Below are positions 2,078-40,641 of a stretch of DNA of 64,000 nucleotides, piece by piece. The stretch is from the sequence record PZ179883.1; one strand, written 5' to 3'. The notes under the pieces were generated by a model that was given only the letters and a program-made list of their open reading frames with translations, did no database searches and had not been told where the DNA came from. This stretch comes from a phage. The position numbers and the translations under genes were made by a program. Every line of letters starts with the position of its first letter. Within the stretch, counting starts at the first letter, position 1.

Positions 2078-3760
2078 TTAAACCATTACAGTAAATCGAC
2101 CAACTTTCTTCATTTGAAGATGCTGACCATATTCTTGCGGGTCATGGTCTTTATGCGAAATTATAAAAACATTAGTGTTTTTCATTGAATTTATAATATT
2201 AGCTACACCTTTAATACCTTCGGCATCAAATGACCCATCAAACACTTCATCAAGAATTAATGTACTAATACTAACACCAGATACGATAGAAGCAATATCA
2301 CGCCAAGTAAATAAAAGAGCAATATCAATTCGTGCCTTTTCACCTTCACTAAATGAAGCATAACTAAAATCTTCACGACCACGGGATTTAATTGTCTCAT
2401 TAAATTCTTCATCTAATGTAAACACATAATCCGCTTCCATTATTTTAAGATAATGGTTAATCTGCTTATTAAATAATGGAATGTACTTTTTAATAATAGC
2501 ACCTTTAATACCAGAATCTTTGAGCATATCAGTCAAAATTCCTCGGTGGTATTTTTCCATTACTAAATTAGTTTTTGTCTTAACAATTTTATCAAGTTCT
2601 TCTTGAAGCAATGCTATTTCATCAGCATGGTCAATAAACTCGGATGATGCTTTTTCTATAGCTGCTTTAACTTTTTTAGCTTTATCTACTGTCGTGATTA
2701 GAGATTGCTTTTTATTGCGAATATCATTTGCCAACGACTGCTGGGTTTTAATATTATCTCGGTATTCATCAACAAGAACTTTTAAATTATCACGATGTGT
2801 TGAAAGCTGTTCAAACGAATGCGTACATTCAGAAACTTTATCTTTAATTTTAGAAACAACTTTATCACCGGAACTTAATTGTGACAAGCAGGTTGGACAT
2901 AATCCACCTTCGTGATACATATTAATGACTTTATTATACGAGTCAATTTTTGATTTAATTAAAACTGCTTCTTGACCGATTTTATTAAATGCATCAGTCG
3001 GGTCTTCATCTAAAACAATATTAACTAATCTTTCATTAGCTTCTTCTATTTCCGATTTTAGCGTTCTAGCTTCTTTTGCCAAATCATCATACATATTTTG
3101 AAGACGAGTAAGGTTGTCACCCGTTAATTTTTTCTGGCGTTCAACGTTATCATTATATATTTTAATTTGTTGGATAATACTATCTTTTTTAACGTCAAGC
3201 ACTTGGTTTTGTGAATTTAATTCACGTATTAGTGCTTTATTAAGCTTATCCATTTCAGCTAATGTTCCTACCTCAAGCAGGTCTTCCACAAGCTTTCTTC
3301 GCGCAGGGGTCGACAAACCCATGAAAGGGGTATACCCTGCTGTACCAAGGACAACAATCTGCTTGAAACTGGCATATGACATTCCGATAAGCTGTTCAAA
3401 TTCTGCTTGGAAATCTTTACTGCTGGCAGATTCATTAAGACGTGTACCGTTAACGGTGATTTCGAAAACGTTTGGTTTTTGTCCTCTTTTGATATAGTAC
3501 TTTTTCTCATCATATTCCATCCACAGTTCAACTAAAAGTTCTTTCTTATTTGTGCTGTTTATTAATTGGCCTTTCTTTACATCACGAAATGGCTTGCCAA
3601 AAAGCCCAAATGTGATGGCTTCTAACATAGTAGACTTACCACCGCCATTTCGTCCAGTAATAAGAGTTTTTTGAACCTTATCTAATTGAATGTCAATAGG
3701 ATTTCCACCTACTGACATTATATTTTGATACCTAACTCGGTTTAGTTTAAAATTCTTCAC
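2078..3760 (-). CDS. 46: recombination endonuclease subunit gp46 (Rad50/SbcC-like ATPase)
   Basis: 560 aa; Walker A GRNGGGKST, long coiled-coil middle, C-terminal LILDEVFDG; start is GTG at 3758-3760 with AAGGAA RBS. Confidence 0.9.
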   Translation of the reverse strand: MKNFKLNRVRYQNIMSVGGNPIDIQLDKVQKTLITGRNGGGKSTMLEAITFGLFGKPFRDVKKGQLINSTNKKELLVELWMEYDEKKYYIKRGQKPNVFEITVNGTRLNESASSKDFQAEFEQLIGMSYASFKQIVVLGTAGYTPFMGLSTPARRKLVEDLLEVGTLAEMDKLNKALIRELNSQNQVLDVKKDSIIQQIKIYNDNVERQKKLTGDNLTRLQNMYDDLAKEARTLKSEIEEANERLVNIVLDEDPTDAFNKIGQEAVLIKSKIDSYNKVINMYHEGGLCPTCLSQLSSGDKVVSKIKDKVSECTHSFEQLSTHRDNLKVLVDEYRDNIKTQQSLANDIRNKKQSLITTVDKAKKVKAAIEKASSEFIDHADEIALLQEELDKIVKTKTNLVMEKYHRGILTDMLKDSGIKGAIIKKYIPLFNKQINHYLKIMEADYVFTLDEEFNETIKSRGREDFSYASFSEGEKARIDIALLFTWRDIASIVSGVSISTLILDEVFDGSFDAEGIKGVANIINSMKNTNVFIISHKDHDPQEYGQHLQMKKVGRFTVMV

Positions 3761-4020
3761 AAAAGATTCCTTTTAATGTATCTTTTAGACCATTCTATCA
3801 TATCATCATAATCTAAAAAGTATTCATCAAATTCAGCCATGCAAACAACGCCTTGTGCTGTTTTTGATGTAATATAAATTATTCCAACATATCTAGAATC
3901 TTCTTCGGTATAATCAATGTTTGCTATGAATTCATCATTAATGTCAAATGTCGAAAACTTCACAGTATGCATCCTTAATACAAGATACGGCCATATCTCG
4001 CAATGATTTAGGTGTGTCAT
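3757..4020 (-). CDS. hypothetical protein (46.1-like position)
   Basis: 87 aa track ORF between 46 and 47; overlaps next ORF, start uncertain. Confidence 0.4.
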   Translation of the reverse strand: MTHLNHCEIWPYLVLRMHTVKFSTFDINDEFIANIDYTEEDSRYVGIIYITSKTAQGVVCMAEFDEYFLDYDDMIEWSKRYIKRNLL

Positions 4021-7336: not shown

Positions 7337-7555
7337 TTATTTCTCTAATATAAAATAAAAATCATCATCTGTTAAATGATACCGATAGTTTAATTCTACA
7401 CCATTAGATTTAAAAGCGGTATCATACGGATTTTCTGGGTCAATATCAATGTCAAGAGCTAAAACTTCCCTGAGATACATTTTAAGTAAATAGGGAATAG
7501 CTTCAACTTCAGGTATTTCTTCCAAGAATCCGGAGAGGTTAATCGTTAGCCTCAT
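7337..7555 (-). CDS. hypothetical protein (72 aa)
   Basis: Track ORF immediately downstream of gp55. Confidence 0.45.
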
Positions 7556-8096
7556 ATAAAAAATCCAAACTAGGAGAATCGTCTACAACACTTTTCTTTT
7601 CAGCCCCCGGTGTTCTATAGGTTGATTCTTCGTAATGCGTCATTTTATCGTAGATGTCTTGAATAAAAGTTTCATCTACTAACGCAACCATATCGTCGTC
7701 ACGACTGTCATAGACATTGTGAACGAAGTAACTATATTTCTTTGCAACTTCCTTACGTTCTTTTTTAATACGTTGGACGAATGCATTAAAACAAGCTTGA
7801 GTTATATATGCATGCGGGTTTTTATATTTCGTTTCATCAAAATTATGAAGCCCCTTAATAGAAGCTTCTATACCATCTGCAATCATTTCTTGTTTCCAGG
7901 ATTGGGTGTATCCTGAAAAGTTGAAACGTTTAGATAAGCCTTCTGCAATAAGCATAATGGCTAATCCGATGGTATCATTCTGACGAACTACTTTATTTGG
8001 GTCTTTATTATTTGCTAATTCTGTTTTCCAATCAATAATAGCTTGTAAAAGCTCTTTATTGTTTACGTAATTATATTTAGGCTTAGTTTCTGACAT
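7539..8096 (-). CDS. 55: late-transcription sigma factor gp55
   Basis: From ATG 8094-8096: [24 protein letters not shown]..., 185 aa, matches recalled T4 gp55; track start at 8102 is GTG. Confidence 0.9.
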
Positions 8097-32785: not shown

Positions 32786-33588
<803 letters not shown>

Positions 33589-34044
33589 TTAAAAGAGGCT
33601 GTTCATTATTCGGTAAAGTGAAGGGCCCATCACATATTGCCACTGAGTACGAGGAATAAGGGCAAAAGCATCCATCTCTGGAATCATAACACCATCTTTA
33701 TTTTCAAAATAAGACTCGCAATGGCAATTTCTAAACATCTCATGCTCTACTGGAATCGTATAATAAAATAACTGTAAGTCTTTATTACTAGAATATTTAA
33801 ATACACCTAGGTCTTCTAGAAGGTCTGGATTATAATTGCTAAAACCAGTCTCTTCTAAACATTCTCTTCGTGCTGCATCTAGTGCGTTTAAATCAGAATT
33901 TTCTACACGGCCTTTTGGAATATCCCAGCGATGTGCCATCATTCCAGGCTTACGAGAACCAGTAACCCGTCCCATGAATAAATCTTTATCTTCTGTCATA
34001 AAGATAATACCAGCTGATAATGTTTTCATTTTAATTTCCTGCAT
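33589..34044 (-). CDS. nudE: Nudix hydrolase
   Basis: 151 aa; Nudix box GRVENSDLNALDAARRECLEETG. Confidence 0.8.
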   Translation of the reverse strand: MQEIKMKTLSAGIIFMTEDKDLFMGRVTGSRKPGMMAHRWDIPKGRVENSDLNALDAARRECLEETGFSNYNPDLLEDLGVFKYSSNKDLQLFYYTIPVEHEMFRNCHCESYFENKDGVMIPEMDAFALIPRTQWQYVMGPSLYRIMNSLF

Positions 34045-34514
34045 TCAATGATAAAGTTATTTAAATTTTGAGTATATTTCTTTTCATCAAAAATCTTTTG
34101 TTGTCTGCGTAGCCGCCATGGCATTTCGATGAACACACACCATATTCCTGATAGTATTGCTGCTGTCAAAATATTAACAAGTATGATTAAAAGAATCCAA
34201 TCTCCCGTTCTGCCTACTGGACTTTCTCCAAAGAAGCAAAATACAAATGATGTCACAGGAAAACTAATAATGTACCACAGAATCATAATTTTATCTGTGA
34301 ACCAATCAGCGTTCGTTAATTTAGCGCGACCATTATGAATACATACGAATTTATCATCTGTTGCAGTAGATGGCTTAACTGGTTGATATCCCATTCTAAA
34401 CTCCCTAATCAGCAAATTTTTCATATCTTCGGAACAGCCATTCCAGTCAACTCTATCAACTGGAATGCCATCATCCCCATCATCTAAATCATACCAGCGA
34501 GTTTTTAAAATCAT
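34026..34514 (-). CDS. membrane protein (162 aa)
   Basis: Hydrophobic helices ILWYIISFPVTSFVFCFF and LLIILVNILTAAILSGIWCVFI. Confidence 0.5.
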   Translation of the reverse strand: MILKTRWYDLDDGDDGIPVDRVDWNGCSEDMKNLLIREFRMGYQPVKPSTATDDKFVCIHNGRAKLTNADWFTDKIMILWYIISFPVTSFVFCFFGESPVGRTGDWILLIILVNILTAAILSGIWCVFIEMPWRLRRQQKIFDEKKYTQNLNNFIIECRKLK

Positions 34515-34873
34515 CTGATTTTCCTACAATCACTCACAAACTCTTTCATTGATTCATTTTCAATATAAGACATGTAGCTATTATATTCTTTTAATTGTAT
34601 TTTGTAATCCTTTTTTCTTTGCCAATTTATTTTAAAATTATCATAATGAAAATATAGAATGATACAAAAGAATGAAAATAATGAAATAATTTTAGTATAG
34701 CGAAGTTCACTCCAAACTTCTATTATATTTACTGTGCCATCGATGTTTAAAATAAGACAGTCAATTAACAATCCAAAAAGACTACCCGCAAGAGCTGCAG
34801 CCAACGCCACAGCAAAAATTAAAAATGACTCAGGAAGCGAATATTTGACTTTATTTAGTTTTGGCTTTTGCAT
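34511..34873 (-). CDS. membrane protein (120 aa)
   Basis: Hydrophobic helices FLIFAVALAAALAGSLFGLLIDCLIL and ISLFSFFCIILYF. Confidence 0.5.
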   Translation of the reverse strand: MQKPKLNKVKYSLPESFLIFAVALAAALAGSLFGLLIDCLILNIDGTVNIIEVWSELRYTKIISLFSFFCIILYFHYDNFKINWQRKKDYKIQLKEYNSYMSYIENESMKEFVSDCRKIR

Positions 34874-35268
34874 CGTGATTCCTTAACAAATTTCATAATT
34901 TCATCAAATTCATACGCAGCAAGTTTAAGCTGATATTCCTTTTTAATCTTTTTACACTGTGCTTTCCAATCACGTACACGTTTACGATAATGTCTTCCTT
35001 GATACCAGTATCCTACCCAATTTACAGGTACTAATAAAAGTGGAACTATTAATGGAAGAATTAGCATTAACACAAGTATTTCGCCAGAATCAATATCAGT
35101 CATAACATCTAAAACACCTCCAATAATCAATAGAATTACAAATGATATGAGTATAACAGGACCTATTAACACATCAGTAGAAATTATCTGACGCTTTGGT
35201 TCATACTTCACAGGTTTACTTGGAAGGTATAGTGATGGTTTTGACATATTCTCTACATTCCTTAACAA
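34855..35268 (-). CDS. membrane protein (137 aa or shorter)
   Basis: Two hydrophobic helices; N-terminus overlaps upstream gene. Confidence 0.45.
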   Translation of the reverse strand: MLRNVENMSKPSLYLPSKPVKYEPKRQIISTDVLIGPVILISFVILLIIGGVLDVMTDIDSGEILVLMLILPLIVPLLLVPVNWVGYWYQGRHYRKRVRDWKAQCKKIKKEYQLKLAAYEFDEIMKFVKESRCKSQN

Positions 35269-35824
35269 ATTTTTCTAGTAATAAATCACTTTCAAAATTG
35301 GGATTTTCTACAAATTTATCAAAAAGATCATCAACAATAGTTAAGATATTCTTTTTACTAAGAATACGTTTATTTTCATGCTTCGTTTCAGAATCAACTA
35401 TAAGAGTAAAGAAATATTTCTTGCCCTGAAATTTTACAGTAGTATCAATATAAAATAAATTTGACTTTTGTAAATTACGTTTAAACCATGCGTCACTTAA
35501 ACTATAAATGCCAAGATAATCATAATCGTCGTTTAAATAACAAACTGTCCATTCAGGAGAAATGAAATCAGTAAATTCAACATCAAAATCACATGTCAAT
35601 GAATGAATTGATTCAATACTGTTAATAAGTATTCCAGGACGTATTAAGGACTTTTTACCTCTATAAAATCTTCCAGAAAGACTTTCGTCAGTTTCATACG
35701 AAGACCCCCAATAGTAATTACGCCCTTCTGCCATACGTTTAAGAGCATTTAGTAATTGGTCTGGAACATCAACATGTCTTTGGAACTCTTCAAACATTGA
35801 ATTGAAATCATTTTGCATTCTCAT
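35216..35824 (-). CDS. hypothetical protein (202 aa)
   Basis: Track ORF preceded by hairpin. Confidence 0.5.
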   Translation of the reverse strand: MRMQNDFNSMFEEFQRHVDVPDQLLNALKRMAEGRNYYWGSSYETDESLSGRFYRGKKSLIRPGILINSIESIHSLTCDFDVEFTDFISPEWTVCYLNDDYDYLGIYSLSDAWFKRNLQKSNLFYIDTTVKFQGKKYFFTLIVDSETKHENKRILSKKNILTIVDDLFDKFVENPNFESDLLLEKFVKECREYVKTITIPSK

Positions 35825-35841
35825 TCCTATTTACTCCAAGT

Positions 35842-35861
35842 ATAAGGGGCCGAAGCCCCTT
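35842..35861 (-). terminator. UUCG-tetraloop stem-loop after coiled-coil gene
   Basis: UAAGGGGC-UUCG-GCCCCUUA; weak U tract. Confidence 0.45.
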
Positions 35862-35865
35862 ATCA

Positions 35866-36459
35866 TTATTTCAGAGAATTAATGTATTCCTGAACATCAG
35901 CAGAGGTAGTTTCAACCCCAGAAATATTACCGTTAAAGGTTTCAACTCGAGCAAGGGTATCTTCAATATCAACCTTAGTCAGTGCTGCAATTTCAACTAC
36001 ATCATCGGCAGTACTAATTCCAAGGGCATTTGCTGCACGAGTTTCACGGATATATTCCAATTTAACCGCAAGTTCTTGACGAGCATCATCTAACTCAACT
36101 ACTTTCTTGGCGATTTCAATTCGCATTTCAGCATAACCGTCAGCCTTAGTAGTCAACTGCTCAGCTGTTCGACGATATAGTAAACCGAGTTTAGCATGCA
36201 TTGTTACATCTTGGCCTTCGGAAAGAAGTTTACGAATTTCACGCTCTTTTGATTCGGCCTGTCGATTCTTTTCGATAACAAGTTCACGAATACGTTTTTC
36301 TTCGTTAATAGATTTAACAGAAGCAGTTTTTAGATCTTTAATTTTATCAAGTAGTTTTGCTGCTGCAGCAGTATACTGTTCTTCGACAGATAGATTTTTA
36401 GCCATAGCAGAACCAAGTTTAGTGCGAATAAACTCAACAATTTTCTTCAGTGTGTTCAT
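35866..36459 (-). CDS. long alpha-helical coiled-coil protein, PspA/IM30-like pattern (197 aa)
   Basis: ATG with AAGGAAA RBS; continuous charged heptad-like helices; PspA assignment is inferential. Confidence 0.4.
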
Positions 36460-36560
36460 AGTATTTCCTTAGGTTAATTGAGATTTAAAATCCGTAGGAG
36501 TATAATACTCTATCGTCAAATTATAGGCTCATAATATCTCAATCATGAGCCTGCGTAAAC

Positions 36561-36824
36561 TTATTTCATATTATTGAAATATTCTTCTGCGATTTCGTCG
36601 TTATCATGGTAAACTTTAGAAGACAGTTTAACATAACCTTCTGCTGTGAACATATTAATCACAACTTTTACAGTATACCACTGACCGTCTTCATTACCCA
36701 TTACTGCGTAAGTTTCAAACATCGGATGGTCAGGACCGATGACTTTAATATCATTCACTGTACGACCGAAATCTTCTGAAACGCATTTCATAAAGAAGTT
36801 GAACAGTTCGCCGTAATTATCCAT
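36561..36824 (-). CDS. hypothetical protein (87 aa)
   Basis: Track ORF trimmed to ATG 36822-36824 with GGAGAA RBS, downstream of early promoter. Confidence 0.5.
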   Translation of the reverse strand: MDNYGELFNFFMKCVSEDFGRTVNDIKVIGPDHPMFETYAVMGNEDGQWYTVKVVINMFTAEGYVKLSSKVYHDNDEIAEEYFNNMK

Positions 36825-36867
36825 TTCATTCTCCAAGTTGTTTTCTGTATCAGTAGTTGATAGTTGT

Positions 36868-36897
36868 ATAGTACCATGGAAGAACAGAGATGTAAAC
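36868..36897 (-). promoter_or_regulatory. early promoter (GTTTAC, 18 nt, TGGTACTAT)
   Basis: GTTTAC 36892-36897, TACTAT 36868-36873; AAAAATTTTTTCACAAAA upstream element. Confidence 0.6.
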
Positions 36898-37020
36898 AGT
36901 TTTGTGAAAAAATTTTTAGGGAATTCTAGGGCAGGGATGGGCAATTAAAGGATAGGATAATATATTATAAAGGGTATAAACTAAATGATGCCTAGAGAGG
37001 TCCAGAAAGGCCTAGATACC

Positions 37021-37046
37021 AAAAAGCCCTATCATTTAGATAGGGA
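37021..37046 (-). terminator. intrinsic terminator after internal-protein-like gene 37054-37617
   Basis: CCCUAUC-UAAAU-GAUAGGG followed by CUUUUUGG. Confidence 0.55.
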
Positions 37047-37053
37047 TTTAAAA

Positions 37054-37617
37054 TTATTTACCTAGTTTACTTATTATAGCTTCTGCAGCAGCTTTTAGCT
37101 TAGATGCAGTGTTAATACGATTTTTAATTTCAGTATACGCATCGCCAAGAACATCAAGGCTATCAGAATAAACACTTACACTATTGCGTTCGCTATTTGA
37201 AATAGAACCTTTAGTTTTGCGGTCAAAATCGGTGTACACGTCTTGAAGATCGCGGGCTGCCTTCTTTGCATCATCCAATGCATCAAGAGCTTTATTCAAA
37301 GCATTAACGTATTTTTTAGTGTCGAACATATTCTTAGAAATTTTAACAGGTGCGCGTTCAGGAGTAGCTAACACAGATTTAGGAACCTGAGCGCCAGATG
37401 CCAATTTCTTAGAAATTTTGAAAAATGCTTTATTGAATTTATTTTCTTGACTCATTGTAAAAGAACTATTATCGATGTTGTACATTTCAATAGCTTTAGC
37501 TTTCCACTTAAGAAAATCGCCGCGGTCTTTTGGGTCCAATTGGAAGAATACTTTAGTAAGATCTGCTTCAGATGGTAATTTTGCTGCTTCGGTTAAAAAT
37601 TCGGCATAGGTTTTCAT
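37054..37617 (-). CDS. internal-protein-like gene with capsid targeting sequence (187 aa)
   Basis: N-terminus MKTYAEFLTE; Ala/Lys-rich body; terminator hairpin after stop. Confidence 0.6.
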   Translation of the reverse strand: MKTYAEFLTEAAKLPSEADLTKVFFQLDPKDRGDFLKWKAKAIEMYNIDNSSFTMSQENKFNKAFFKISKKLASGAQVPKSVLATPERAPVKISKNMFDTKKYVNALNKALDALDDAKKAARDLQDVYTDFDRKTKGSISNSERNSVSVYSDSLDVLGDAYTEIKNRINTASKLKAAAEAIISKLGK

Positions 37618-37706
37618 TTAAAATCCTTGAAATAATTTATCGGTTGGTTATTAATTATTTATTACTTTGTTACTATCCGTAACAGCGTTATCCGAGTGAT
37701 TCAAAC

Positions 37707-37735
37707 TAAAAAGCCCCAACCTTTCGGTCGGGGCT
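37707..37735 (-). terminator. intrinsic terminator, copy 1 of a 31-nt identical element
   Basis: Minus-strand GCCCCGACC-GAAA-GGUUGGGGC followed by UUUUUAG; identical to 38262-38291. Confidence 0.7.
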
Positions 37736-37742
37736 AAGAATG

Positions 37743-38216
37743 TCATTTGATTTGTTTAGCAGACCAAATGCGGTCTTTAATAATTTTTTGGATGTCTTCA
37801 ACATACTCAAGAGAGTGAACATGTGGATTATCTTTGAAACTATAAGCACGGGCTAACTTTTGGCCTTCGGTTTTGATTACTAAAAGCTCTTTAAGGATAG
37901 CTTCATATTTAGCGATAATTCCTTTAACGATATTTTTTTCTTGTGCCGCTTTAGGATCTGCTTTAGGAGCAGGTTTACCCGAAGCCTTTGCAAAAGCAGC
38001 GCCAGTAGCAACTAAACTTTTCCAGGCCATACTAACTGCATTTCCCGTAAATCCTTCCGCTTTCATGTCGCGTGCAAACTGGAATCGCGATTCATCAGAA
38101 GCATCTTTATAGGAATATTTACCCGCGGCAATGGCAGCTTTTGCAACAGCTTGAATTTCGGTGCTAGATGCTTCATTTAACACCGCTTCATTTAAAAATT
38201 GAGTATATGATTTCAT
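37743..38216 (-). CDS. internal-protein-like gene with capsid targeting sequence (157 aa)
   Basis: ATG 38214-38216 with AGGAAA RBS gives MKSYTQFLNEAVLNEAS; track N-terminal extension overlaps the terminator. Confidence 0.6.
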   Translation of the reverse strand: MKSYTQFLNEAVLNEASSTEIQAVAKAAIAAGKYSYKDASDESRFQFARDMKAEGFTGNAVSMAWKSLVATGAAFAKASGKPAPKADPKAAQEKNIVKGIIAKYEAILKELLVIKTEGQKLARAYSFKDNPHVHSLEYVEDIQKIIKDRIWSAKQIK

Positions 38217-38261: not shown

Positions 38262-38291
38262 ACCAAAAAGCCCCAACCTTTCGGTCGGGGC
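38262..38291 (-). terminator. intrinsic terminator, copy 2 of the 31-nt element
   Basis: Same hairpin plus U tract, at the downstream edge of the tRNA/small RNA region. Confidence 0.7.
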
Positions 38292-38342
38292 TAAGCCTTG
38301 CGGCAACCTTGTCGGGGTTCCACCTGCTAAGGCAAGTGTTTG

Positions 38343-38966: not shown

Positions 38967-39042
38967 TGGTCGAGGCAGTAGGGATCGAACCTACGACCTA
39001 GGACTTAGAAGGTCCTTGCTCTTCCTTCTGAGCTATGCCCCG
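38967..39042 (-). tRNA. tRNA-Arg (anticodon TCT), CCA encoded
   Basis: Manual fold: 7 bp acceptor, T-loop TTCGATC, anticodon loop CTTCTAA. Confidence 0.85.
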
Positions 39043-39046
39043 TAAT

Positions 39047-39128
39047 TGGGGTGACCGATGGGAGTCGAACCCATGACTACGAGAATCACAATCACAATCT
39101 CGAGTTCTACCAACTGAACTACGGCCAC
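39047..39128 (-). tRNA. tRNA-His-like (GTG) with 13-nt anticodon loop; possible pseudo-tRNA
   Basis: Acceptor, D-arm, T-arm and discriminator C resemble tRNA-His; anticodon stem CGAGA/TCTCG encloses TTGTGATTGTGAT. Confidence 0.55.
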
Positions 39129-39242
39129 ATTAATACCTACTCCAACAATCAAGATGTCTTCACACGAAATTAAGAGAAGAGTGATCAGTTCAACCCCTAT
39201 AATCGCGTCAAGTAGATATTAATGTGACAGTTGTCACAAATT

Positions 39243-39317
39243 TGGCGGACGTGATAGGATTCGAACCTATAACCAATCGCTTAACAGGCGATCGCTCTGC
39301 CATTGAGCTACACATCC
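39243..39317 (-). tRNA. tRNA-Asn (anticodon GTT), CCA encoded
   Basis: Manual fold: acceptor GGATGTG/CACGTCC, anticodon loop CTGTTAA, T-loop TTCGAAT. Confidence 0.85.
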
Positions 39318-39321
39318 AAAT

Positions 39322-39408
39322 TGGTGGGGAGTGGTGGAGTCGAACCACCCGAGTCGCAATGACAATGGATTTACAGTCCACACCGCTACCTCTACGGGAT
39401 AACTCCCC
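39322..39408 (-). tRNA. tRNA-Tyr (anticodon GTA), long variable arm, CCA encoded
   Basis: Manual fold: anticodon loop CTGTAAA, T-arm GGTGG-TTCGACT-CCACC. Confidence 0.8.
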
Positions 39409-39417
39409 AAATTAATT

Positions 39418-39492
39418 TGGTGGCCCTGGGTGGAATTGAACCACCATCTGGCGATTATGAGTCGCTTGCTTGAACCTTCCAGCTACAGGGCC
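39418..39492 (-). tRNA. tRNA with CAT anticodon (Ile2-type as in T4, or Met)
   Basis: Manual fold: acceptor GGCCCTG/CAGGGCC, anticodon loop CTCATAA. Confidence 0.75.
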
Positions 39493-39493
39493 T

Positions 39494-39569
39494 TGGTGCT
39501 GATTGACGGAATCGAACCGCCGACCTTCTCATTACAAGTGAGTTGCTCTACCTACTGAGCTAAATCAGC
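39494..39569 (-). tRNA. tRNA-Thr (anticodon TGT), CCA encoded
   Basis: Manual fold: acceptor GCTGATT/AATCAGC, anticodon loop CTTGTAA. Confidence 0.85.
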
Positions 39570-39574
39570 AAAAC

Positions 39575-39664
39575 TGGCGGAGGCGATAGGATTTGAACCT
39601 ATGAGTCGCCGGAGCGACTGCCGGTTTTCAAGACCGGTGCATTAAACCACTCTGCCACGCCTCC
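39575..39664 (-). tRNA. tRNA-Ser (anticodon TGA), long variable arm, CCA encoded
   Basis: Manual fold: anticodon arm CCGGT-CTTGAAA-ACCGG, T-loop TTCAAAT. Confidence 0.85.
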
Positions 39665-39666
39665 AG

Positions 39667-39740
39667 TCTCCGTGGCAGGATTTGAACCTACGACATTCTG
39701 CTCCCAAAGCAGACGCTCTACCAAACTGAGCTACACGGAG
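39667..39740 (-). tRNA. tRNA-Pro (anticodon TGG), CCA not encoded
   Basis: Manual fold: acceptor CTCCGTG/CACGGAG, anticodon loop TTTGGGA. Confidence 0.85.
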
Positions 39741-39750
39741 TAAATTAAAT

Positions 39751-39824
<74 letters not shown>

Positions 39825-39829
39825 AAATT

Positions 39830-39916
39830 TGGTGCGAGAAGTGGGACTCGAACCCACAAGGAAATCATTCCGCAGCATTTTAAGTGCTGTGCCTTTACCA
39901 ATTTGACCATTCTCGC
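39830..39916 (-). tRNA. tRNA-Leu (anticodon TAA), long variable arm, CCA encoded
   Basis: Manual fold: acceptor GCGAGAA/TTCTCGC, anticodon loop CTTAAAA. Confidence 0.85.
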
Positions 39917-39922
39917 TCTATA

Positions 39923-40531
39923 TTATTTATTACGTGAAAAAGATTGTTCTATCAATTCTGGACACTTTCGTTCTATCCATTTTCTAGCTTTTTGTGGGCT
40001 TATACCTATTATTTTAGCAGCTTTACTAACCCATCCAAATTTAGAATAATCGATTTTAACTAATTCTTCGTAAATTTCATCAGTTAAAATCTTTTCATTA
40101 ATATTTACCAGTAAATGATATAATTTATTATCATTAGCAATTTTAATGAATCTTTTATAGTTTCCGCCTTTACTTAAACCTAATGAAGTAATTGCAGATG
40201 ATATAGTAGCCGAATTTAATAATGCGTTTAAAATTTCTTCATCACTAACATTATAACGCTTTTTATTATTTTTAATATTTTTACCAGCAAAAGTATCAGT
40301 TTGCGAATGGCAATTTGGACATAATAATCTTAAATTTGATTTAAGATGATTTTTGTTATTTCCATCAATATGGTCTAATTGCAGAACAATATGCTTATTT
40401 TGCCATTTTGAAATTTTACAAATTGCACACTCATATGGAAAAATATTTTCTTTTATTATTTTGTCTTTCAGCTTTCCTGTACTAAAATTTGGATGTTTTC
40501 CTTCAAAAATTTCAGCTAATTTAGTATCCAT
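39923..40531 (-). CDS. HNH homing endonuclease-like protein
   Basis: HNH motif LQLDHIDGNNKNH...LLCPNCHSQTD; 202 aa from ATG 40529-40531 (track start 40555 is TTG); stop abuts tRNA-Leu. Confidence 0.7.
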   Translation of the reverse strand: MDTKLAEIFEGKHPNFSTGKLKDKIIKENIFPYECAICKISKWQNKHIVLQLDHIDGNNKNHLKSNLRLLCPNCHSQTDTFAGKNIKNNKKRYNVSDEEILNALLNSATISSAITSLGLSKGGNYKRFIKIANDNKLYHLLVNINEKILTDEIYEELVKIDYSKFGWVSKAAKIIGISPQKARKWIERKCPELIEQSFSRNK

Positions 40532-40641
40532 AATATAATTCCCAATTATTAACAAAGGCTCTCTAACAAGAACCCTTGATGATAGAGGGTATTAATCAGT
40601 GCGATATGAGTTAATAATAACAAATAATTCTTAAAGCATAT

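Follow-up and report, generated by a model that had tools for sequence, protein, structure and literature searches.

The e.6 protein of T4-type phages as a probable divergent PspA/IM30 protein encoded beside small proteins with a shared C-terminal tail

PspA-type systems and the e.2-e.6 locus

PspA was named for its induction by phage and belongs, with IM30 (Vipp1) and LiaH, to the PspA/IM30 family (PF04012), the bacterial branch of the ESCRT-III superfamily. The hallmarks of this family are an N-terminal amphipathic helix (alpha0), a long coiled-coil hairpin (alpha1-alpha2/3) and further C-terminal helices. In the PspB/PspC-PspA system of Enterobacteria and the LiaI-LiaH system of Bacillus, small bitopic or two-helix inner-membrane proteins use their cytoplasmic parts to recruit the PspA-type protein encoded next to them to the membrane (PMC7619361). 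Here we examine five consecutive genes at positions 34026-36459 (minus strand) of a phage DNA stretch of 64,000 nucleotides (sequence record PZ179883.1), hereafter referred to as the window. Judged by its sequence, the window is a segment of a Tequatrovirus (T4-type) genome and the five genes correspond to the block e.2-e.3-e.4-e.5-e.6 of T4.

The e.2-e.6 region itself has long been known in T4 but is uncharacterised. Two points are, as far as the literature is searchable, unreported: the assignment of e.6 to the PspA/ESCRT-III superfamily, and a family of proteins with the C-terminal tail F[IV]xxCR that is linked to e.6. Since e.6 is present in T4, the best-studied phage, and in more than 1,100 genomes, it offers a testable handle on the upkeep of the host membrane by large lytic phages after host shut-off. 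In addition, the assignment would extend the ESCRT-III superfamily to bacterial viruses, the shared tail supplies an obvious interaction hypothesis, and a first structural and functional lead is obtained for five T4 genes of unknown function. The five genes, with lengths in amino acids (aa), are as follows.

35866 to 36459, minus strand: e.6, open reading frame of 197 aa
35216 to 35824, minus strand: e.5, open reading frame of 202 aa; PHROG 2607
34855 to 35247, minus strand: e.4, 130 aa from the ATG used in T4; PHROG 2604
34511 to 34873, minus strand: e.3, open reading frame of 120 aa; PHROG 2330
34026 to 34514, minus strand: e.2, 162 aa, intact; full-length match to PHROG 2203 'membrane protein'

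The region 33500-37700 is 97% identical at the DNA level to many T4-like phages of Escherichia, Shigella and Yersinia. The minus-strand gene order, e.8, e.6, e.5, e.4, e.3, e.2, nudE and e (lysozyme), matches that of T4 (NC_000866), except that e.7 is absent from the window phage. At the protein level 194 of 197 residues of e.6 are identical to T4, compared with 190/202 for e.5, 116/130 for e.4 and 108/120 for e.3. The original prediction, made without database searches, had placed five open reading frames here between nudE and internal-protein genes. This arrangement was borne out: the minus-strand frames match T4 e.2-e.6, nudE adjoins e.2, and on the other flank e.8 is followed by two genes with the N-terminus MK[TS]Y.[EQ]FL.EA, which we take to be typical of T4 internal proteins. 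The start of e.4 was corrected to the ATG at 35247 (130 aa) instead of the upstream TTG of the open reading frame list (137 aa), because T4 uses this ATG and PHROG 2604 matches aa 8-137 of the TTG version. From e.5 through nudE the genes overlap stop-to-start, by 32 nucleotides (nt) between the e.5 stop and the e.4 start, 19 nt between the end of e.4 and the start of e.3, 4 nt in the ATGA stop/start of the e.3/e.2 junction and 4-19 nt between the e.2 stop and the nudE start; they therefore form a translationally coupled unit.

Relationship of e.6 to PspA, Vipp1 and LiaH

The combined evidence from sequence profiles and a structural model indicates that e.6 is very probably a genuine, if divergent and C-terminally shortened, PspA/IM30 protein. 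The family is narrow: an e.6 profile (A1), built from 30 relatives that are each at least 47% identical, retrieved only about 45 representative clusters among 1.84 billion proteins, and almost every full-length match is about 200 aa long. Two proteins encoded in T4-like contigs, where they adjoin uvsX and the gene 41 helicase, connect the two families: P0066 (E 3e-20 to the e.6 profile, 39.0 bits on PF04012) and P0065 (E 1e-21 and 35.1 bits) both exceed the PF04012 gathering threshold of 33.9 bits, covering profile positions 2-143 of 220. Altogether, PF04012 was matched by 5 of the 39 e.6 family members. When a broadened family profile (A2) was run against the PDB sequences, cyanobacterial Vipp1 came first (E 7.7e-5 to 2.5e-3), in an alignment that is collinear from residue 1 to about residue 146 in both partners. 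Comparison of A2 with a PspA/Vipp1 alignment by hhalign gave a probability of 92.2% (E 5.9e-7, 170 columns), with a shallow PspA side consisting of five enterobacterial PspA sequences and residues 1-149 of Synechocystis Vipp1; the search with E. coli PspA had yielded only relatives at least 86% identical to it. This match spans e.6 1-176 and E. coli PspA 1-171 and reaches alpha4, where ARVETFN lies over ARFESFE. A Foldseek search of the PDB with the e.6 model returned Vipp1 as its nine best matches (probability 0.99-1.0, E 1e-3 to 8e-2), and archaeal CdvB2 was found lower down the list. Sequence identity between e.6 and PspA/Vipp1 is about 14-17%.

The AlphaFold2 (AF2) model of e.6 is almost wholly helical (residues 3-20, 25-80, 86-145, 165-175 and 186-196), with a predicted local distance difference test (pLDDT) score of about 83-95 in the hairpin and low values at the N-terminus and around aa 147-163. 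Residues 2-20, which are modelled as a helix at low pLDDT, form an amphipathic and cationic N-terminal helix like alpha0 of PspA/Vipp1; aa 2-19 carry a net charge of +3 and have a hydrophobic moment of 0.45, which compares with 0.42 in PspA and 0.57 in Vipp1. The following long hairpin of two helices of about 55 residues each (aa 25-80 and 86-145) matches the alpha1-alpha2/3 coiled-coil hairpin of PspA/IM30. As the maximum Kyte-Doolittle hydropathy is 1.05, no transmembrane segment is expected. The short helix at aa 165-175 carries ARVETF, and aa 186-196 constitute a C-terminal helix specific to the family. Thus, e.6 represents a phage-specific branch that keeps the N-terminal amphipathic helix, the alpha1-alpha2/3 hairpin and the start of alpha4, and in which a short family-specific region appears to replace the remaining C-terminus. 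At 197 aa, compared to 222-267 aa in PspA and Vipp1, e.6 falls short of PspA by 25 aa and seems to be missing alpha5 (and alpha6) as well as the greater part of alpha4; unlike the cellular members of the family, it is encoded by a phage and ends in a conserved segment of its own, LGI..DV...VD...L.RVETF.G....T..D...Y..SLK.

Several results weigh against this assignment. The e.6 protein of the window has itself no Pfam match at E <= 1, and so none to PF04012, while a phmmer search of the PDB with it came back empty. A profile built from close relatives only hit Vipp1 at a non-significant E of 1.8-4.4, and hhalign with close relatives only gave a probability of 8.9%. The link to PspA therefore depends on the distant family members. 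Furthermore, coiled-coil composition can inflate such scores, and the HMMER bias in the A2-PDB search amounted to 16 bits. The C-terminal quarter also appears to differ from PspA, since in the alpha4/alpha5 region only the start of alpha4 aligns and the Pfam matches stop at positions 143-151 of the 220-position profile.

Literature searches on e.6 or on phage-encoded PspA gave nothing relevant, and phage-encoded PspA is absent from the searchable literature, including a systematic PSP survey and a 2025 review of bacterial and archaeal ESCRT-III. Public records name e.6 homologues 'hypothetical', 'phage protein' or 'host specificity protein', with PspA never among the names. As an additional observation, 'host specificity protein' is frequent for e.6 homologues and 'sulfurtransferase' occurs for homologues of e.3, e.4 or e.2; neither name is supported by our findings, and both look like propagated mis-annotations.

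The membrane proteins, e.5 and their common C-terminal tail

Transmembrane calls for the genes downstream of e.6 rest on hydropathy (Kyte-Doolittle, 19-residue window, threshold 1.6), on the T4 annotation 'predicted membrane protein' and on the PHROG 2203 label 'membrane protein'. In e.2 two hydrophobic segments (aa 75-96 and 102-131) lie between an acidic N-terminal domain (aa 1-74) and a basic tail, and e.4 contains two such segments, one at about aa 27-50 (maximum 2.85) and one at about aa 55-80 (maximum 3.04). The first segment of e.3 (aa 17-46) is strong, with a maximum of 2.47, while the second (aa 59-77) reaches 1.57, just under the threshold, or 2.2 with a 15-residue window. The C-terminal tails of e.2, e.3 and e.4 have net charges of +6, +3 and +9, and the two helices of each protein are joined by a short loop that is acidic overall; basic N-termini are seen in e.3 and e.4. 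Such a pattern agrees with C-terminal tails that lie in the cytoplasm in all three proteins and, in e.3 and e.4, with an N-in/C-in hairpin. In contrast to these proteins, e.5 has a maximum hydropathy of 0.87 and no transmembrane segment, and is predicted to be soluble; its AF2 model is of low confidence, with a C-terminal helix at residues 181-196, and its homologues bear a precomputed PF26876 match.

Direct Pfam, NCBIfam and PADLOC scans of e.2-e.6 gave nothing significant, and the anti-phage defence and exclusion profiles of PADLOC were unmatched. By pairwise BLAST against a tiny database, e.3, e.4 and the C-terminal half of e.2 could be connected weakly by way of intermediates (E 1e-3 to 3e-5), and a paralogy of the three proteins that extends beyond the tail is likely. 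It may be added that the e.2 gene of the T4 reference is split: the annotated 102-aa e.2 stops inside the first hydrophobic helix, and a downstream, unannotated open reading frame of 53 aa encodes the second helix and the tail FITECRKLK (3473-3634 and 3653-3961 in the T4 locus extracted here, L001). Phage G9062 likewise has two open reading frames at the e.2 position.

The C-terminal ends of the four proteins are alike, namely EKFVKECREYV (followed by further residues) in e.5, MKFVKESRCKSQN in e.4, KEFVSDCRKIR in e.3 and NNFIIECRKLK in e.2. Their core motifs are located as follows.

35252 to 35269, minus strand: tail FVKECR of e.5, 11 aa before the stop
34873 to 34890, minus strand: tail FVKESRC of e.4, a variant of the motif
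34523 to 34540, minus strand: tail FVSDCR of e.3, 3 aa before the stop
34038 to 34055, minus strand: tail FIIECR of e.2, 3 aa before the stop

A six-frame translation of all 64 kb of the window contains only three exact F[IV]xxCR motifs, namely the C-termini of e.5, e.3 and e.2. When the window and ten other Straboviridae loci were taken together, 19 of 20 exact matches followed the e.6 homologue on the coding strand, at a distance of 0-15 residues from a stop. A further 37 IMG/VR loci (e.6 identity 49-100%, 6 kb on either side) gave a similar picture, with 93 of 101 matches on the e.6 strand, downstream of e.6 and at most 16 aa from the stop, compared to one match upstream on the e.6 strand and six on the other strand; between one and five tails per locus were found in 35 of the 37. 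In the model of e.5 the motif sits within the C-terminal helix 181-196. Because the codons differ between the genes and the motif of the e.5 type lies far from the next start codon, F[IV]xxCR is a motif of the protein level. Our analysis revealed e.2-e.5 to be a rapidly diversifying set with a common C-terminal helix ending in F[IV]xxCR, and the tail defines a new family of small proteins.

Two observations from related phages concern protein ends of this kind. In Klebsiella phage KP179 an unannotated open reading frame (7348-7689 of locus L008), located between the nudix hydrolase and lysozyme genes, ends in LELFIAKCRAK and probably belongs to the tail family but was overlooked in annotation; it is the best match of the tail-motif hidden Markov model, yet also one of its seed sequences. 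In phages TH54, SonariX and LC53, several small soluble proteins of the block (L012 7864-9125, L011 7299-7825 and L009 6329-6894) end in W[VLF].SS..C, as in GAWVSSSEVC, GSWVSSSYEC and KIWYPSSC, and constitute a second family defined by its C-terminus, none of which was seen in the window.

Distribution and conservation

The tblastn searches found e.6 in 1,107 phage records, e.5 and e.4 in 644 each, and e.2 in 534. Phages bearing e.6 infect Escherichia, Klebsiella, Aeromonas, Enterobacter, Serratia and other hosts. In more distant homologues about 88% identity is retained by e.6, compared to about 47% by e.5, 54% by e.4 and 33% by e.2. The e.6/e.5 pair is syntenic across the whole sampled range (e.6 identity 49-100%), and in the most distant e.6 contexts the adjoining genes still encode membrane proteins, several of which end in a related [IV]xxxAR pattern. 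With regard to the individual proteins, the original prediction of three small proteins with two hydrophobic helices each agrees with the hydropathy profiles, the second helix of e.3 being weaker, as does that of a soluble 202-aa protein. Its likening of the 197-aa helical protein to PspA/IM30 is supported by the transitive PF04012 match, the PDB profile search, hhalign and Foldseek, while the shared C-terminal motif of e.2-e.5 and the stronger conservation of e.6 had been missed.

In phage RB43 (L006, 4501-4947) the annotated e.6 is 97 aa long and corresponds to the C-terminal half, with tblastn matching aa 52-197 alone; phage EC-F1, which is close to RB43, has an intact e.6 of 198 aa. The short RB43 version may be a truncation or a mis-annotated start site.

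Expression of the locus

Two candidate signals for transcription or RNA processing were found around e.6.

35842 to 35863, minus strand: GC-rich UUCG stem-loop, AUAAGGGGC-UUCG-GCCCCUUAU, between the e.6 stop and the e.5 start, from a terminator scan
36531 to 36559, minus strand: weak sigma-70-like promoter candidate, TTTACG-17-TATTAT, upstream of e.6, from a consensus scan with 9 of 12 matches

The stem-loop has a folding energy of -15.6 kcal/mol (z = -2.5), and it is annotated as a putative terminator in the record of phage G9062. Seven divergent phages (including L001, L007, L008, L009, L011 and L012) have a stem-loop at this junction, with stem sequences that differ, among them GGGGC/GCCCC, GGGGCC/GGCCCC, GAGGGC/GCCCUC and GGGGGC/GCCCCC. 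Such a hairpin, conserved in position, suggests a conserved expression boundary. In the window no good U-run stands behind it, and it probably serves as a partial terminator or as an element of RNA stability, dividing e.6 from the e.5-e.2 unit. The sigma-70-like sites of the promoter scan were not enriched over shuffled sequences. The T4 late-promoter motif TATAAATA is absent from the e.2-e.6 block, as would be expected if these genes are transcribed early only; two copies of it were seen at 33566-33586 (minus strand), just upstream of the lysozyme gene e.

In time-resolved omics of T4, the RNAs of e.2-e.6 are early and all five proteins were detected, with e.4 and e.5 classed as early, e.2 and e.6 as middle and e.3 as late proteins (PMC9697503 supplement). 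The T4 annotation lists e.2, e.3 and e.4 as 'predicted membrane proteins' and e.5 and e.6 as 'conserved hypothetical', and in a genome-wide CRISPRi-ART study e.2 to e.8 were all scored 'Not Fit', that is without a knock-down phenotype (PMC11879866 supplement). The genes of the block are thus early, expressed and dispensable in the laboratory.

Possible role and alternative explanations

Compared to the Psp and Lia systems, the locus resembles them in that a PspA-type protein is encoded beside small inner-membrane proteins, here e.2-e.4, with predicted cytoplasmic basic tails; the architecture is analogous only. The differences are considerable. PspF, PspB and PspC are lacking, and phage early promoters take the place of the sigma-54 stress promoter. 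Moreover, e.2-e.4 are dissimilar in sequence to LiaI, PspB and PspC, and there are three or four paralogous, fast-evolving tail proteins plus a soluble one. Within T4, the superinfection exclusion proteins Imm and Sp are also small, early and non-essential inner-membrane proteins, and Imm has two hydrophobic helices. No sequence similarity of Imm or Sp to e.2-e.4 was found (no Pfam match), and within the 64 kb F[IV]xxCR is confined to e.2, e.3 and e.5; to the extent that the window can tell, Imm and Sp are therefore devoid of this tail.

The explanation that we favour, with moderate confidence, is that of an early, non-essential block in which e.6 acts as a PspA-type membrane protector or remodeller and the tail proteins are its partners. 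Like PspA, Vipp1 and LiaH, e.6 would use alpha0 and the hairpin to attach to the host inner membrane from the cytoplasmic side and would polymerise there, and the polymer could limit proton leak or remodel the membrane, so that the proton-motive force is preserved during infection. T4 blocks host transcription. A phage-borne copy makes sense because, with host transcription shut off, the sigma-54-dependent Psp response cannot be mounted. It has been reported that T4 induces the host psp operon only weakly, and PhiX174 strongly (PMC12795941). With lower confidence, e.2-e.5 may be partners or adaptors that dock by their tails onto a common target, possibly e.6, which makes them candidate anchors analogous to PspB/C and LiaI. 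Variable adaptors on an unchanging scaffold would suit the rapid diversification of e.2-e.5 beside a conserved e.6. An extension of this scheme, which is conceivable but which we would rather doubt at present, is that T4-type phages carry a self-contained viral Psp-like system made of an e.6 polymer and F[IV]xxCR-docking adaptors e.2-e.5. In such a system the adaptors would send e.6 to damaged sites of the inner membrane or to host defence effectors that attack membranes, and the infected cell would be kept energised, for example during DNA injection, superinfection, lysis inhibition or abortive-infection attack, once the host stress response is silenced. The following points speak against a Psp-like role of the block: the lack of a CRISPRi-ART phenotype mentioned above, the fact that the position of tail genes next to e.6 in related genomes reflects synteny and is not independent evidence, and the absence of any match of e.2, e.3 or e.4 to the PspB, PspC or LiaI families in Pfam or NCBIfam (E <= 0.1-1).

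Other explanations concern e.6 itself. That it is a generic coiled coil, whose likeness to PspA is compositional, seems very improbable: P0066 and P0065 exceed the curated PF04012 threshold, the matches are collinear from residue 1 with identical helix boundaries, the nine best Foldseek matches are all Vipp1, and landmarks outside the coiled coil are shared, namely the acidic alpha0-alpha1 junction, hAKLaL against LAReAL and ARVETF against ARFESF. A second possibility, which we consider quite unlikely, is that e.6 mimics host PspA as a decoy and does not protect the membrane, for example by titrating PspF or PspBC, by poisoning the host PspA polymer, or by serving as an alternative acceptor that parks a type II CBASS cyclase in an inactive state. 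The C-terminal shortening of e.6 relative to PspA and its location in a plastic region near internal-protein genes would suit a decoy, and in Klebsiella a truncated PspA has been described as a gain-of-function allele with effects on the envelope and on susceptibility to phage (PMC12234005). Regarding CBASS, the cyclase of a Bacillus system was found to be conjugated specifically to PspA and held inactive, and CBASS at low expression was impaired by PspA, but E. coli PspA was not seen as a conjugation partner (PMC11153139). Furthermore, an identity of about 14% to PspA is poor for mimicking a specific interface, and e.6 is highly conserved over hosts with very different defence repertoires. 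Titration of PspF would also add little once T4 has shut off host transcription.

The remaining explanations concern e.2-e.5. These proteins could serve in superinfection exclusion, in blocking injection, in lysis timing or against host defence without any connection to e.6, in which case the adjacency of e.6 is inherited order and the tail binds a host protein or other tails. Their evolution, much faster than that of e.6, with one to five copies per genome, is reminiscent of an arms race, e.2 is disrupted in the T4 reference strain, and the conserved hairpin sets e.6 apart from e.5. The two-helix architecture is also like that of Imm, and the single conserved Cys of each tail could make an intermolecular metal or disulfide site among the tails. 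However, no match to exclusion, holin or immunity families was obtained in Pfam, PADLOC or NCBIfam, the e.6/e.5 pair is syntenic throughout the sampled range, and even very distant e.6 relatives adjoin membrane-protein genes; we thus regard an independent function as unlikely. The tail could also be a by-product of nucleotide constraint, either from the Shine-Dalgarno sequence of the next gene or from gene conversion, and not a functional peptide, given that the CR(K/E) codons TGY AGG AAA hold the AGGA ribosome-binding site of the next gene and that e.5 and e.4 have 13 identical nucleotides, TTTGTTAAGGAAT, in common. Such an origin is hard to believe, as the conserved F, I/V and C precede the ribosome-binding site, the codons vary between genes (TGC/TGT; AGG/AGA/CGA; ATC/GTG/GTT), the e.5-type motif stands 5-15 aa before the stop and distant from the next start, and the motif is kept in phages whose e.6 is just 49-60% identical. 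Among these explanations, the membrane-protector reading of e.6 with tail proteins as partners is the one that we retain.

Neighbouring features

Upstream of e.6 there is only an e.8 homologue (36561-36944), for which PHROG 2678 matches aa 41-127 (87 aa) of the long open reading frame. Beyond it, two consecutive genes at 37054-37617 and 37743-38216 (or 38393) both match PHROG 2280 and both start with MK[TS]Y.[EQ]FL.EA, presumably resembling the capsid-targeting sequences of T4 internal proteins. Each of them is trailed by a terminator-like hairpin, AGCCCCGACCGAAAGGTTGGGGCT, followed by a T-run; the two hairpins, at 37712-37735 and 38269-38292 (minus strand), are identical, and the arrangement looks like a duplicated internal-protein cassette. 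Further on, ten tRNA genes were found at 38967-39916 (minus strand), including an odd 82-nt 'tRNA-???' at 39047-39128. After the tRNA cluster, at the position of T4 segB, an open reading frame of 210 aa (39923-40555) carries an HNH-type CxxC...HxxxH...CxxCH pattern and probably encodes a homing endonuclease.

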